From contig CAXXUO010000001.1 of the NCBI GenBank assembly GCA_963666485.2, positions 416,001-480,000 on the forward strand: a DNA stretch of 64,000 nucleotides. Direction: 5' to 3'. Below, piece after piece: positions 35,834 through 57,157 of this stretch (its first letter is position 1; each line of letters opens with the position of its first letter). The stretch is from Syntrophorhabdaceae bacterium (GTDB lineage Bacteria > Desulfobacterota > Syntrophorhabdia > Syntrophorhabdales > Syntrophorhabdaceae). Under the pieces are notes generated by a model. That model saw nothing but the letters and a program-made list of their open reading frames with translations, was not told the origin of the DNA and searched no databases. A program made the position numbers and the translations under genes.

Positions 35834-37622
35834 CGTCTGTCTTGAGGGCTGCGAGGAATGCGCTTTGCGGTATCTCGACATTACCCACGATGCGCATGCG
35901 TTTCTTTCCTTTTTTCTGTTTTTCGAGGAGCTTCCTTTTGCGGGTAATGTCGCCGCCGTAGCACTTCGCCGTGACATCCTTCCGGTACGCCGAGACCGTC
36001 GAACGGGAAATGATCTTGCCCCCGATAGCACCCTGTATCGCTATCTTGAACTGCTGCCGCGGGATCTCGTCTTTGAGCTTCTCGCATACCTTCACGGCAC
36101 GGTCGCGCGCATTGTCCTTATGCACGAGGATCGACAGGGCGTCGACCTTTTCACCATTCACGAGTATGTCGAGCTTCACGAGGTTGCTCTCGCGGTAATC
36201 CGTTATCTCGTAATCGAATGAACCGTATCCCTGCGTGATGCTCTTGAGTTTGTCATAGAAGTCAAAGATGACCTCCGCGAGCGGCAGATCGAATGTCACC
36301 TCCACCCGGCCGGGTGTGGGATAGCTCAAATGGGAGTTTACGCCGCGCCTCTCCATGCAGAGCTTCATCACCGCACCGACATATCTTTCCGGTATCAGGA
36401 TGCTTGCCCTGATGTAGGGCTCCTCCGAACTTTTTATCTGGCCGGGATCGGGGTAGTACAGCGGGTTGTCGACGTCGAGCCGGGTCCCGTCATCCAGAAA
36501 AAACCGGTACTGCACGCTCGGCGCGGTCATGATGATGGACTGGTCGAACTCGCGCTCGAGCCGCTCCTGTACGATCTCGAGGTGAAGAAGGCCGAGATAG
36601 CCGCAGCGGAAGCCCTGCCCGAGTGCGGCGGATGAATCCTTCTGGTATACGAGTGAGGCGTCGTTGAGCTTATATTTCTCGAGCGCCTCGAGAAGCGATT
36701 GGTAATCGTCGGAAGCGATCGGGTAGATCGATGAAAAAACGACCGGCTTGACATCCTTGAACCCGGGAAGAGGCTCCGGGGCGGGGTTGGCGTCGAGGGT
36801 AATCGTGTCCCCTATCCGTGTGTCGCTCACCGTTTTTATTCCTGCAATAATATAGCCGACCTCTCCCGCGGACAGGTCTTTTTGCGGTTCCCGGTTGAGG
36901 CGGAACACCCCGACCTCTTCAACGCGGTAGGTCGTGCCCTGCGACATCAAGCGTATGATGTCCCCCTGTTTTACCGTGCCGTCAAATACCCGGCAGCTGA
37001 CGATGGTGCCCCTGAATGAGTCGTAATGGGCATCAAATGTCAGGGCCGTCAGCGGTTTGTCGGGGTCGCCCGTGGGCGGTGGTATCCTCTCCACGATGGC
37101 CTTGAGGATGTCCTCGATACCGGTGCCTTCCTTGGCCGAGCAGAGGATGGCCGTTTCGGGGTCGAGGCCAAGCTCGGCATCTATCTCGTTCTTCACCCGT
37201 TCCACGTCAGCGACCGGCAGGTCGATCTTGTTTATCACGGGGATAATGACAAGGTTGTGCTCGAGCGCCGCATAGAGGTTCCCGAGTGTCTGCGCCTCGA
37301 CGCCCTGCGCCGCATCGATGAGCAGGAGCACCCCCTCGCACGATGCGAGGGCCCGTGACACCTCGTAGGAAAAATCCACGTGGCCCGGCGTATCGATGAG
37401 GTTCAGCTCATATTCCTGCCCGTTCTCATCGACATACGGCAAGTCGACGGTCTGGCTCTTGATCGTGATGCCGCGCTCGCGCTCGATATCCATCGTGTCC
37501 AGTATCTGGTCTCGGAACTGCCGGTCCTCGACCAGGTGTGTGTACTGGATAAGGCGGTCGGCAAGCGTTGATTTGCCATGATCTATATGGGCTATGATGC
37601 TGAAGTTCCGTATATGCTTCAT
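35826..37622 (-). CDS. lepA: Translation elongation factor 4
   Basis: [28 protein letters not shown] and [23 protein letters not shown]. Confidence 0.98.
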
Positions 37623-37650
37623 TTGACTGGGGCTTGCGCCGCCCCTTCCC

Positions 37651-37995
37651 TTACCTTTTCACTATTTCGACATCGACTTCGCCCCCGAAAACGTCGGCGA
37701 GTTCCCTGTTAAGACTGATCATATCGTCTTCTTTCTCTGCTTCAATCACAAGTTCCCGGTCATCCAGGACCTTCAGTTTCCCGTACTTCTTCACGACATC
37801 TATCACTTTCTTCGGATCGGTCGTGACCCACCCTTTCATTCTTTTGACCAGTTCTTCCCCGTTAAAGGACCTTTCGATAGTGAGGTCGACCCTGCGCTTC
37901 TTTGCCTCCCAACCAACCAATGCCGGCTGGGCAACCATGGGCGTCACCGGATCATGCATGGCCGCGCACCTGAACCACAATTTTGCCCTGACCAT
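37651..37995 (-). CDS. Hypothetical protein, 114 aa
   Basis: Strong GAGGAGG RBS, normal composition, co-oriented with lepA. Confidence 0.75.
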
Positions 37996-38068: not shown

Positions 38069-38260
38069 AACGGCGTACGGCTGACGGCGTAAGGCGTACG
38101 GTGAAACGGGAAAAGCAAAAGGCAAAGAAAAGACGAAAGGCGAGGAAGAAAGTCCCGCTTATTCCAAAGGAACATTAGCGGGTTTGGGTACTTCCCGAAC
38201 ATAGCATAAAACCTGAGGCGGTTTTTTCCGTACGCCGTACGCCGTCAGCCGTACGCCGTT
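38069..38260. repeat. Inverted heptamer-repeat pair (CGGCGTA / TACGCCG) with an AAAGGC-type array
   Basis: cggcgtacggctgacggcgtaaggcgtacgg (38071-38101) pairs with ccgtacgccgtacgccgtcagccgtacgccg (38228-38258). Confidence 0.85.
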
Positions 38261-38487
38261 TAATTTTTCGCTCTCCAGCCCTTTTTCTCGAGACAAATCC
38301 TTGTCCCGTCGTTGACGGCTGCTCAGGTGTCGGGGAGGCCGCGGACTGCGAGGTCCTTTCTCACCTGGGCCTCGCAGGCGGTCCTGTCTTTTTCGAAATC
38401 ATCCCCGGTCTTGCCGGGCTTGGTGTATACGGTCGCGCAACCTGCGAGAAGCATGGCGGCCGCAAATAATAGCAGGGTCCTTTTCAT
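38260..38487 (-). CDS. Small lipoprotein with an in-frame UGA: candidate selenoprotein (75 aa, Sec55)
   Basis: MKRTLLLFAAAMLLAG-C-ATVYTKPGKTGDDFEKDRTACEAQVRKDLAVRGLPDT-[TGA]-AAVNDGTRICLEKKGWRAKN*. Has a lipobox and GGAG RBS, and a SECIS-like hairpin follows the TGA. Confidence 0.7.
38289..38322 (-). promoter_or_regulatory. Putative SECIS element of the small lipoprotein
   Basis: 8-bp stem CGGGACAA(GGAU)UUGUCUCG; the loop starts 22 nt after UGA. Confidence 0.65.
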
Positions 38488-38541
38488 GAAATACTTAACT
38501 CCGGATAGGTATTCATTACAGTGCCCTTAACGGGCAGGCAA

Positions 38542-39429
38542 TCACTTGAAATCAACGGTAACGGGGTTGTTGAATTCCAGCTTCAGGCCCTCTATTCCCT
38601 TTACCATTGATTTGATCTCTTCAACCGATTGAGGCTGCGCCTCGTTTATTTTTTTCAGAAGCGCTGCATCGCCGACCAGTTTCCCGAAATCCATGTCGAT
38701 AAGCGTTATCTTCTTGTCCGTACGATATGTCGCGTTCGTGCTCACTATGTCGCCCATCATGTTGAGGACGATGCTGACCTTCATGTCCTTGAACATCGAT
38801 TTCATCATCTCGACCGCATTCGGGTCTTCGGCTTCGTCTTTTTTCTTGGCCTCGTCCTTCTTATCTTTCTTGTCTTCCGTTTTCGGCGGCGGCATCGTTA
38901 CCGAAAGCCGTGAAACCGGGCCTTTCTTGAATGCAAACTTTATGTTGTCATCCGCCGCCGCGCTGGCGTCATCTTTCTTTGAATCGCCCGGCGTCTTCTT
39001 GCCCGGGTTCTGATTGAGGGTCACCTTGCTTATGTCATTGAAACTGTAGATGGCCGTATATCCCGAGGCCGTTTTGGTCTTTGCCGGTTTTGCCGAGACG
39101 AACTTCACGCCTTCGCCGTAGTCCTTCGCATTGGTCTTCGCTTTCTCCATCATTTCGTCTATGAAAGAATCGTCCCCCTGCGGTTTTGCGCTTTCGGCCT
39201 TCCCCTTGTCTTCTCCCGCCGCCTCGTTCAAACCCTTTGTCAGGCCCTGCATCATCTCTATAAAGGAATTTCCCATGAGCACCGTCTCTTCAATCGTGCC
39301 GCTGCCGTCGGGCTTGATGTTCAATACCATGTTGTCCTGTATGCACCCGGAGAGAAGAAATATCGCGGCGCAAACGGCACTTAATTTCAGGGTCATCCAA
39401 AAACGGTGCGGCTTTTTCGCTGCGGTCAT
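38542..39429 (-). CDS. Hypothetical lipoprotein
   Basis: GGAGG RBS, lipobox LSGC, and IKPDGSGT motif. Confidence 0.8.
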   Translation of the reverse strand: MTAAKKPHRFWMTLKLSAVCAAIFLLSGCIQDNMVLNIKPDGSGTIEETVLMGNSFIEMMQGLTKGLNEAAGEDKGKAESAKPQGDDSFIDEMMEKAKTNAKDYGEGVKFVSAKPAKTKTASGYTAIYSFNDISKVTLNQNPGKKTPGDSKKDDASAAADDNIKFAFKKGPVSRLSVTMPPPKTEDKKDKKDEAKKKDEAEDPNAVEMMKSMFKDMKVSIVLNMMGDIVSTNATYRTDKKITLIDMDFGKLVGDAALLKKINEAQPQSVEEIKSMVKGIEGLKLEFNNPVTVDFK

Positions 39430-39508
39430 GGGGCATCCTCCTGAAAGGGCTTTCAATCTTGAAAAACTACCACATGCTATCAATGCGGACAGGGCGAGTC
39501 AAGACAAT

Positions 39509-54243: not shown

Positions 54244-55107
54244 TTATTTCTGCTGCTCGTCGAAATATTTCCCGTTTACCTCCCATCCGATGACAGCAAA
54301 ATCGGCATGTGAGGTTGCAAGCGGATCCGACTTCCAGGAAAAACCGAGTGACGGCACGCTTACCTTTGCTTCCGCCTCGGCCTTTGCCCGGAACCCCTCA
54401 AACCGGAAATGTTTCTGCTTATCCTCGATAACGAGCGCCTCCGGCATCGCTGTCCATACAACCTTCAGGCTCATCACCGCGGGCACATACCGGGCTGTGA
54501 GTTCCGGCCATTTCGGCTGGTCGATGACCGGTGTAACGATCTCAAGGGTCGCCTGTTTCGCGTCGGGCGAGACGGTGAGGCTGCCCTTTGGCACGGGGGC
54601 AACCCAGTACAGCCCCGAAGGCGCGATAGCAGGATGAAAATCGTGGATCTTTTTCCCCCCGGCGACCGCCGGGCCCTCAAAGAGGGTGAGTCATATATGG
54701 GAAAATGTTCCCGCGTGCTCCTGCCGGCCCGCGAAATATTTCCCCTCCATGAAGGAAAAATCGGTGCTGGGGGCCCCGAACGCTATGCGGTTGCCACGAT
54801 CATCAGTTCCCATTCCGGTAAAGGCGTTGCTTCGCGCCACGTGCCCTTTGAAATGGTATATGCTCGACGGTTCCATGCCCGGTCCCGGCGATTGGTTCTG
54901 GCTCCCATTCTTGTCAAGCCAGGGTATCGGGAAAGGATCGCTGCCCCCGTTTGAGGGTTCGCTCCACTCTTCGGCGGTCTGACCAATCCCGTGGTTCGCA
55001 AAAAGAAGGGACGCCCCGGCGATAAGGAGCACGCCCGATCCCATCATTTCGCGCCTCGTCAGACCGTTGATCCCGCCAGGTCTCTTTTTACCGGAATACT
55101 CCATCAT
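54244..55107 (-). CDS. Tat-signal protein with an in-frame UGA: candidate selenoprotein (about 287 aa)
   Basis: Track ORFs 54691-55107 and 54244-54594 are in one frame, separated only by TGA 54693-54691 (HAGTFSHI-U-LTLFEGPAVAGGKKIHDFHP). LTRREMM Tat motif. The AAGGAGG RBS favours ATG 55104. Confidence 0.75.
54658..54690 (-). promoter_or_regulatory. Putative SECIS element of the Tat-signal protein
   Basis: UGA-CUCA-CCCUC(UUU)GAGGG-CCCGGC(GGUC)GCCGGG; the GGUC loop starts 23 nt after UGA. Confidence 0.7.
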
Positions 55108-57043: not shown

Positions 57044-57157
57044 TTCGCCCATTGCCTTTCGCCTTTTCCCTTTTCTCTTTCGCCTTTTGCCTTTTGCCTT
57101 TTGCCTTTTGCCTTTTGCCTTTCGCCGTTAGCCGTACGCCGTTAGCCGTACGCCGTT
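57044..57157. repeat. Long compound heptamer array: (GCCTTTT)n, then alternating GCCGTTA / GCCGTAC
   Basis: About 16 consecutive 7-mers immediately after the ydbL-like stop. Confidence 0.9.

Follow-up and report, generated by a model that had tools for sequence, protein, structure and literature searches.

In a 64,000-nucleotide stretch of DNA from a Syntrophorhabdaceae bacterium, called the window below, we found a gene for a 75-residue lipoprotein whose UGA codon 55 is, judging from sequence comparisons, very probably decoded as selenocysteine (Sec). The gene apparently founds an uncatalogued family of very small seleno-lipoproteins in the order Syntrophorhabdales. The recoding is of the standard SelB/SECIS type, and UGA55 would be read as Sec through a SECIS-like hairpin located 22 nt downstream. 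The features of the gene, in positions of the window, are as follows.

38260..38487, minus strand: predicted seleno-lipoprotein gene, 75 codons plus TAA with one in-frame TGA, from translation of the frame
38499..38502, minus strand: GGAG, likely ribosome-binding site, 11 nt before the ATG
38487-38485, minus strand: start codon ATG
38437..38487, minus strand: predicted signal peptide II ending in the lipobox LAG-C17, from the sequence and the invariance of C17
38374..38376, minus strand: codon of Cys38, in helix 1, predicted disulfide partner of Cys65 and invariant in the family alignments
38323..38325, minus strand: in-frame TGA, codon 55, putative Sec (TGA in 37 of 72 homologues, Cys at the site in homologue L024)
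38289..38308, minus strand: SECIS-like hairpin within the coding region, arms 38308-38301 and 38296-38289, loop 38300-38297
38293..38295, minus strand: codon of the invariant Cys65, inside the 3′ arm of the hairpin
38262-38260, minus strand: terminal TAA

The initial annotation had described an unannotated 75-aa lipoprotein with an in-frame UGA and gave no strand; the gene stands, and it lies on the minus strand. As that annotation noted, the TGA at codon 55 cuts the frame to 54 aa, and the ORF list shows the 54-aa piece only. Reading with translation table 11 gives this 54-aa ORF, and readthrough gives 75 residues, with a translation ending ...PDT*AAVNDGTRICLEKKGWRAKN (the asterisk is the TGA of codon 55). 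The ribosome-binding site that had been claimed was found as GGAG 11 nt 5′ of the ATG, and GGAG or GGA(C/G) precedes most of 14 genes of the same genus. The signal peptide has a basic MKR start, a hydrophobic run and a lipobox (L14-A15-G16-C17) with an invariant C17. The LPAM_1 match of the protein is weak (E 0.035, under the cut-off of the model). The LAG-C lipobox, Cys38 and Cys65 were all seen in the translation as proposed, and the protein is probably lipidated at Cys17.

The search for homologues covered 101 genomes and returned 81 matches in 58 genomes, of which 72 were examined; the nine left out were a duplicate TGA copy in genome G021 and eight weak matches listed without stops. An in-frame TGA is kept in 37 of the 72 homologous genes, all from the order Syntrophorhabdales and one of them frameshifted, and an internal TGA is absent from the remaining 35. 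In 36 genes from 33 genomes and two families the frame is intact and the TGA lies 10 or 11 codons ahead of the last Cys; these genomes are related to each other and are not independent samples. The internal stop in family members is always TGA, never TAA or TAG. Indels are in frame in 36 of the 37 TGA genes, and the homologues end 21-30 codons past the TGA, the TGA itself counted. Among 401 genomes of the phylum there were 16 matches, and TGA forms occurred solely in Syntrophorhabdales.

A conserved TGA or a Cys at position 55 had been suggested as the sign to seek in relatives, and both were found: the TGA in the 37 genes above, and Cys in L024, the only order-level homologue with Cys at the exact TGA site. 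The other Cys forms of the order are shifted by 1-5 residues. L024 nests within the TGA clade of the genus (support 99/95) and has lost the hairpin (4/7 pairs remain); therefore, it reads as a Sec-to-Cys reversion. Its host genome (G012) retains selA, selB and tRNA-Sec. A Cys at the exact TGA site is also present in cluster P0015 (21 members). Support for the Sec clade is moderate (81/80), on a tree of 58 columns.

Many genomes of the genus carry both a Sec and a Cys version of the lipoprotein. The genome analysed here also possesses a Cys-only paralogue of RVCDE type (L039, G000:C9:392153-392341, minus strand). In genome G002, a second TGA-type copy (L054, G002:C18, near 37469-37627) keeps the hairpin intact but is shifted out of frame by 1 nt between TGA and hairpin, and represents a pseudogene or an assembly error.

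The hairpin consists of an 8-bp stem with one G-U pair and a GGAU loop, with 22 nt between the UGA and the loop, as first described. The model of bacterial SECIS elements given in the legend of Fig. 2 of PMC13188914 comprises a loop of 3-9 nt, a stem of 4-16 bp, a spacing of 16-37 nt, G in the first two loop positions and an energy of at most -7.5. The hairpin fits every term of this model (loop 4, stem 8, GG, spacing 22, and -8.5 kcal/mol for the 20-nt hairpin). As a single sequence it is modestly unusual. For the 56-nt stretch with the hairpin z was -3.14 (equal stability in 1 of 200 shuffles), but for the 43 nt past the UGA by themselves it was -1.06 (24 of 200). Of the 960 long open frames of this genome that end in TGA, 19 passed a similar hairpin test (stem of at least 7 bp).

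Conservation puts the hairpin well beyond chance. All seven core pairs of the 18-nt hairpin are present in 30 of the 36 intact TGA genes, with 4-6 pairs in the other six, and in none of the 34 non-TGA homologues scored (L070 and L054 were left out of this scoring), which ties the hairpin to the TGA. The distance from UGA to loop is 22 or 25 nt in all 36 TGA genes. Further loci came from a metagenome scan seeded on the pattern upstream of the TGA (37 loci) and from a viral scan (one locus), from which 3 incomplete and 10 duplicate loci were dropped; some of those kept may overlap the genome set. The TGA was present in 21 of the 25 distinct complete loci, and 7/7 pairs were found in 21/21 distinct TGA genes versus 0/4 non-TGA genes, which have 3-5 pairs.

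Codon use within the hairpin is frozen in the TGA genes, with ACA for Thr in 33/36, TGT for Cys65 in 34/36 and CTC for Leu in 36/36. For Cys38, outside the hairpin, TGT and TGC are used 18 times each among the same 36 genes. In 14 same-genus genes pS was 0.029 within the hairpin versus 0.58-0.65 outside. The stem barely varies among family members and two-sided covariation is almost absent, so the case for a SECIS element rests on the frozen codons and on the loss of the hairpin in non-TGA genes. In the plain 7-bp register there were no two-sided changes and shuffles were not beaten (500 of 500). If a U of the 3′ arm is bulged out, the register accommodates one A-U to C-G change, which does not fit the plain 7-bp stem, in two sequences of one genus (L033 and L052, genus g3); it is probably a single event. 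SelB would bind this hairpin.

Selection at the protein level was measured in the 14 same-genus genes, which are free of indels. The pN/pS was 0.33 upstream of the UGA and 0.23 downstream outside the hairpin, with 0.31 over the five codons after the UGA and 0.18 past the hairpin. The codons after the UGA are thus kept as protein, the outcome that had been named as a check on the reading. Mean identity was 0.80 over the 60 nt after the UGA versus 0.27 after the terminal stop. The C-terminal 'C..KGW' motif named in the initial annotation turned out to be real: C38, C65, G70 and W71 show no variation in either family alignment (40 and 47 members). Three of these four residues (C65, G70 and W71) lie downstream of the UGA.

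These data bear on a rival reading, by which translation truly ends at the UGA, the product is a 54-aa lipoprotein and the downstream DNA is an RNA element for stability or termination derived from a longer ancestor. We regard it as very improbable, although the hairpin is conserved at the DNA level and all 13 database proteins that match the single query end at the UGA position (query coverage 72%). Databases store the cut form, and the C-terminal motif is missing in 18 of 69 short representatives, and 16 of these 18 end where the UGA would fall. However, the codons after the UGA outside the hairpin vary synonymously while the amino acids are kept (pN/pS 0.18-0.31), and the Gly of KGW is written with four different codons. 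The in-frame indels and the exclusive use of TGA likewise speak against a stop, and a 54-aa product would be without the family-invariant C65, G70 and W71.

The genome possesses the genes required for Sec insertion, including selA, selB and a Sec-type selD, and a tRNA-Sec scoring 73.7 bits, above the cut-off. An in-frame TGA is also carried by selD itself, by two mvhD/flpD genes and by one formate dehydrogenase-type gene of this genome. Among the 33 genomes with the TGA gene, selB was found in 30; the other three have selA, and two of those have tRNA-Sec. Since 91 of the 101 genomes have selB, its co-occurrence is necessary yet not discriminating. A separate region of the genome (G000:C3:1-52000) has a GC content of 0.60-0.72 versus 0.55 for the genome and carries an additional selA together with a selB-like gene; this region may be of foreign origin, a contaminant or the result of misassembly.

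Reading of the UGA as Trp, Cys or another ordinary residue, by a changed genetic code or leaky readthrough, could appeal to the open frame alone and is even harder to credit than a stop, because the only tRNA called with a TCA anticodon in this genome is the tRNA-Sec, 960 of its long frames terminate at TGA, 7 of the 36 TGA genes also use TGA as terminal stop, and the residue aligned in a homologue is Cys, not Trp. An alternative genetic code was rejected on the TGA-ended frames, the anticodon and the terminal TGA codons. Assembly error was excluded because the TGA recurs in 33 genomes, and a pseudogene was rejected together with it, as selection persists past the TGA. No variant appeared in contigs from two runs of a single sample, which may be the source sample.

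The surroundings of the gene in the window include the following features.

38542..39483, minus strand: upstream neighbour, a 313-aa predicted lipoprotein (LSGC) that ends 54 nt before the gene
37651-37995, minus strand: 114-aa ORF of no known family between the gene and lepA, conserved in the genus
38228..38260, no strand assigned: dispersed REP-like repeat directly 3′ of the TAA, with 31 genome copies at up to 4 mismatches

The order dus, 313-aa lipoprotein, seleno-lipoprotein gene, 114-aa ORF and lepA is conserved in the genus. The 313-aa lipoprotein precedes the gene in 11 same-genus loci and is adjacent to it within the genus only; it has no Pfam or NCBIfam match, and its nearest Atlas clusters are unnamed. 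Beyond the genus the gene neighbourhood is not conserved and is uninformative on function. The 33-nt REP-like repeat, with units of CCGTACG type, occurs in the window at 38228-38260 (plus), 38069-38101 (minus) and 57125-57157 (plus), and the first two form an inverted pair between the seleno-lipoprotein gene and the next gene. The repeat at 38228..38260 is no part of the Sec signal. Elsewhere in the window (54244-55107, minus strand), an ORF with a twin-arginine-like leader has one in-frame TGA at 54693 and a strong hairpin (-11.6 kcal/mol) 21-22 nt past it, and is a second candidate exported selenoprotein.

An AlphaFold2 model of the protein (40 sequences, U modelled as C) has a mean pLDDT of 87.9 and consists of a strand (20-22), a helix (28-49), a second helix (55-68) and a strand (72-74). 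The initial annotation had placed Sec55 in a loop between two helices. The two helices are predicted by the model, whereas the mid-loop position is not, as residue 55 is the first residue of helix 2. In an antiparallel hairpin with its turn at 50-54, C38 would face C65, in keeping with a structural disulfide; the invariance of both residues and the register of the hairpin point to a putative Cys38-Cys65 bond. Sec would then occupy the tip, remote from the lipid anchor and apart from the disulfide. The Cys paralogue L039 models with the same elements, its extra Cys being the second residue of helix 2 (pLDDT 69.1). Foldseek gave no match for the model at E up to 0.001, and the best VIA-align Z was 4.6, with nothing significant; such absence of a match does not show a new fold.

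Sec or Cys is present between C38 and C65 in all 71 intact order-level homologues, a set that was gathered by similarity to the query and may favour Cys-bearing members. The forms of the tip among these 71 are U alone (30), CU (4), CxxU (2), a single C (27) and CxxC-containing (8). An extra Cys is absent from 39 of 51 distant full-length representatives, so elsewhere the scaffold can do without a thiol at the tip. A helix start favours thiolate or selenolate reactivity. From its constancy in the order and its absence in most distant members, the Syntrophorhabdales branch appears to have added, and to keep, a reactive chalcogen at the helix start. Four homologues (L072, L083, L086 and L087) form a Cys-rich subfamily with three extra Cys (C...CxxC) at the tip; their genes adjoin flavodoxin-like and metallo-beta-lactamase-fold genes.

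For the function, we consider it plausible, at slightly less than an even chance, that the selenol is an exposed redox nucleophile that forms a reversible Se-S or Se-Se bond. The selenol would lie exposed in the cell envelope, on the tip of a hairpin of two helices stapled by the predicted disulfide. Most members have no partner Cys, and the tip selenolate would form this bond with a partner in the envelope or with a small oxidant or sulfur species.

Less likely, though still worth weighing, is that Sec is recoded and that the selenol captures soft metals (Hg, methylmercury, Cu, Ag) with high affinity, or passes them on, on the cell surface of an organism that methylates mercury. The mercury methylation gene hgcA is present in this genome (G000:C9:149370-150317, plus strand) and in 29 of the 33 genomes with the TGA gene, compared with 31 among the 55 remaining genomes of the order; kinship and genome size confound this count, so that its Fisher p of 0.002 overstates the link. 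The link of hgcA to the TGA gene is thus enriched, not obligate, and confounded. Four genomes that are 90-100% complete (G003, G011, G013 and G015) have the TGA gene and no hgcA match, and hgcA is common in genomes without the TGA gene. Haft and Gwadz (10.1101/2022.07.06.499078) connect motifs similar to the CU and CxxU variants with metal handling, but no metal-handling gene was found among the recurrent neighbours scanned. Just upstream of hgcA in this genome, aragorn called an odd 95-nt tRNA-Ala(agc) (C9:148918-149012), possibly a false call.

A purely structural role, with Sec recoded and Sec or Cys forming a diselenide or disulfide dimer or a covalent tie to a fixed envelope partner, is similarly doubtful. 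In most members the Cys and Sec residues of the mature part add up to an odd number, with exactly one extra in 57 of the 71, and some distant relatives (P0036, P0120 and P0122) have two extra Cys, one per helix, placed as a second staple would be. The CxxU, CxxC and CU variants, however, fit a redox pair better, and selenocysteine is costly to make and usually catalytic.

More speculatively, and on the unlikely side, the protein may represent a new class of miniature envelope selenoproteins, in which a 59-residue lipid-anchored helical hairpin presents a single naked selenolate outside the cytoplasm, without an enzyme scaffold, for covalent capture (Se-S, Se-Se or Se-Hg), and acts as a selenium-gated switch. 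Helix 2 and Cys65 are both encoded past the UGA, so that folding could require a supply of selenium. On this reading, a genome would in many cases have a paralogue with sulfur alone in addition to the selenium form.

No sequence family of Pfam, NCBIfam 20.0, PHROGs or PDB fits the query above cut-off. The alignments of 40 and 47 family members gave weak matches only, to models of non-selenoproteins, mostly lipoprotein ones. None of the 119 families in Table 1 of a 2026 review (PMC13188914) fits, as judged by the names in that table, and neither 'lipo' nor 'syntroph' occurs in its text. By term search, no such family was found in deep-Sep (PMC12013277, text and four supplements) or in the text of SelCysML (PMC13745706). 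A term search of the text and part of the supplement of BSepDB (PMC13326102) likewise found no such family. No match was found among the families of Haft and Tolstoy 2025 (10.1128/msystems.01417-24) as listed in Table 1 of PMC13188914. A literature search also found no description of such a small lipoprotein selenoprotein family.

If the reading is correct, the bacterial selenoproteome gains a family unrelated to the thioredoxin-like and metalloenzyme families that dominate the lists. It has been invisible to annotation, its close homologues being stored as 54-aa 'hypothetical' proteins or lost to length filters. The mature chain has 59 residues, so Sec, Cys and Ser versions are chemically synthesisable. 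As the U, C, CU, CxxU and CxxC variants share one scaffold, and include a Sec-to-Cys reversion, the family offers a clean model for what selenium adds over sulfur, and this model would sit in the envelope of syntrophic, often mercury-methylating anaerobes.

Similar to the lipoprotein gene, the SelB/SECIS genes of the same genome (selD, the two mvhD/flpD genes and the fdh alpha-type gene) have a UGA with a hairpin inside the coding region, and they share its tRNA-Sec, SelA, SelB and SelD. At -8.5, the apical hairpin of the lipoprotein gene exceeds the selD and mvhD hairpins in strength (-4.5 to -6.9) and resembles that of fdh (-9.5). However, selD, mvhD/flpD and fdh belong to known enzyme families, whereas the lipoprotein is a 59-residue mature chain with no catalytic fold match. 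A thioredoxin fold was not found either, since this chain models as two helices and two 3-residue strands, and CxxU occurs in only 2 of the 36 Sec members.

The claim of a novel seleno-lipoprotein holds for the family and not for the category, because lipoproteins with Sec, SaoX and SaoC (NF040735, NF040734), have already been described in the SAO system (10.1101/2022.07.06.499078). They are also exported lipoproteins of anaerobes, with TU or CU motifs and Cys homologues. However, SaoX is an ABC substrate-binding protein, SaoC (~158 aa) ends in CC or CU, and both are encoded in a nine-gene operon, whereas the gene described here has no conserved operon and its product does not match their models. 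Other small selenoproteins with 1-2 Sec appear in Table 1 of PMC13188914, namely KCU-star/DUF466 (NF033934), UXX-star (NF041114) and selenobacteriocin (TIGR04081). The lipoprotein does not match the models of these either, and differs by its lipobox and by an internal Sec at a helix start.

Matches to phage exclusion lipoproteins (Cor, E 0.13; T5 Llp, E 1.1) and to EexN (E 0.015) are weak, N-terminal and far under cut-off, and the PHROG Cor family was matched by 1 of 47 members. In annotated phage records there was no tblastn match, and one IMG/VR homologue was found, without the third Cys. The nearest ESM Atlas clusters are unnamed proteins of 76-79 aa, two of them mostly viral. In the long match P0047 the two-Cys domain occurs three times, with no further domain. 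The long matches P0042 and P0054, considered as clues to fusions, were rejected, as they look like chance repeats. The lipoprotein is a member of an unnamed family of small lipoproteins of bacteria and phages with the pattern 'Y-x-K/H-P-G...DF..D...C...C...KGW'. This family has 75 representatives at E up to 0.001, in which C17, C38, C65, G70 and W71 are invariant. Most of its distant members lack a third Cys, whereas a Sec or Cys at the tip is typical of the Syntrophorhabdales branch.
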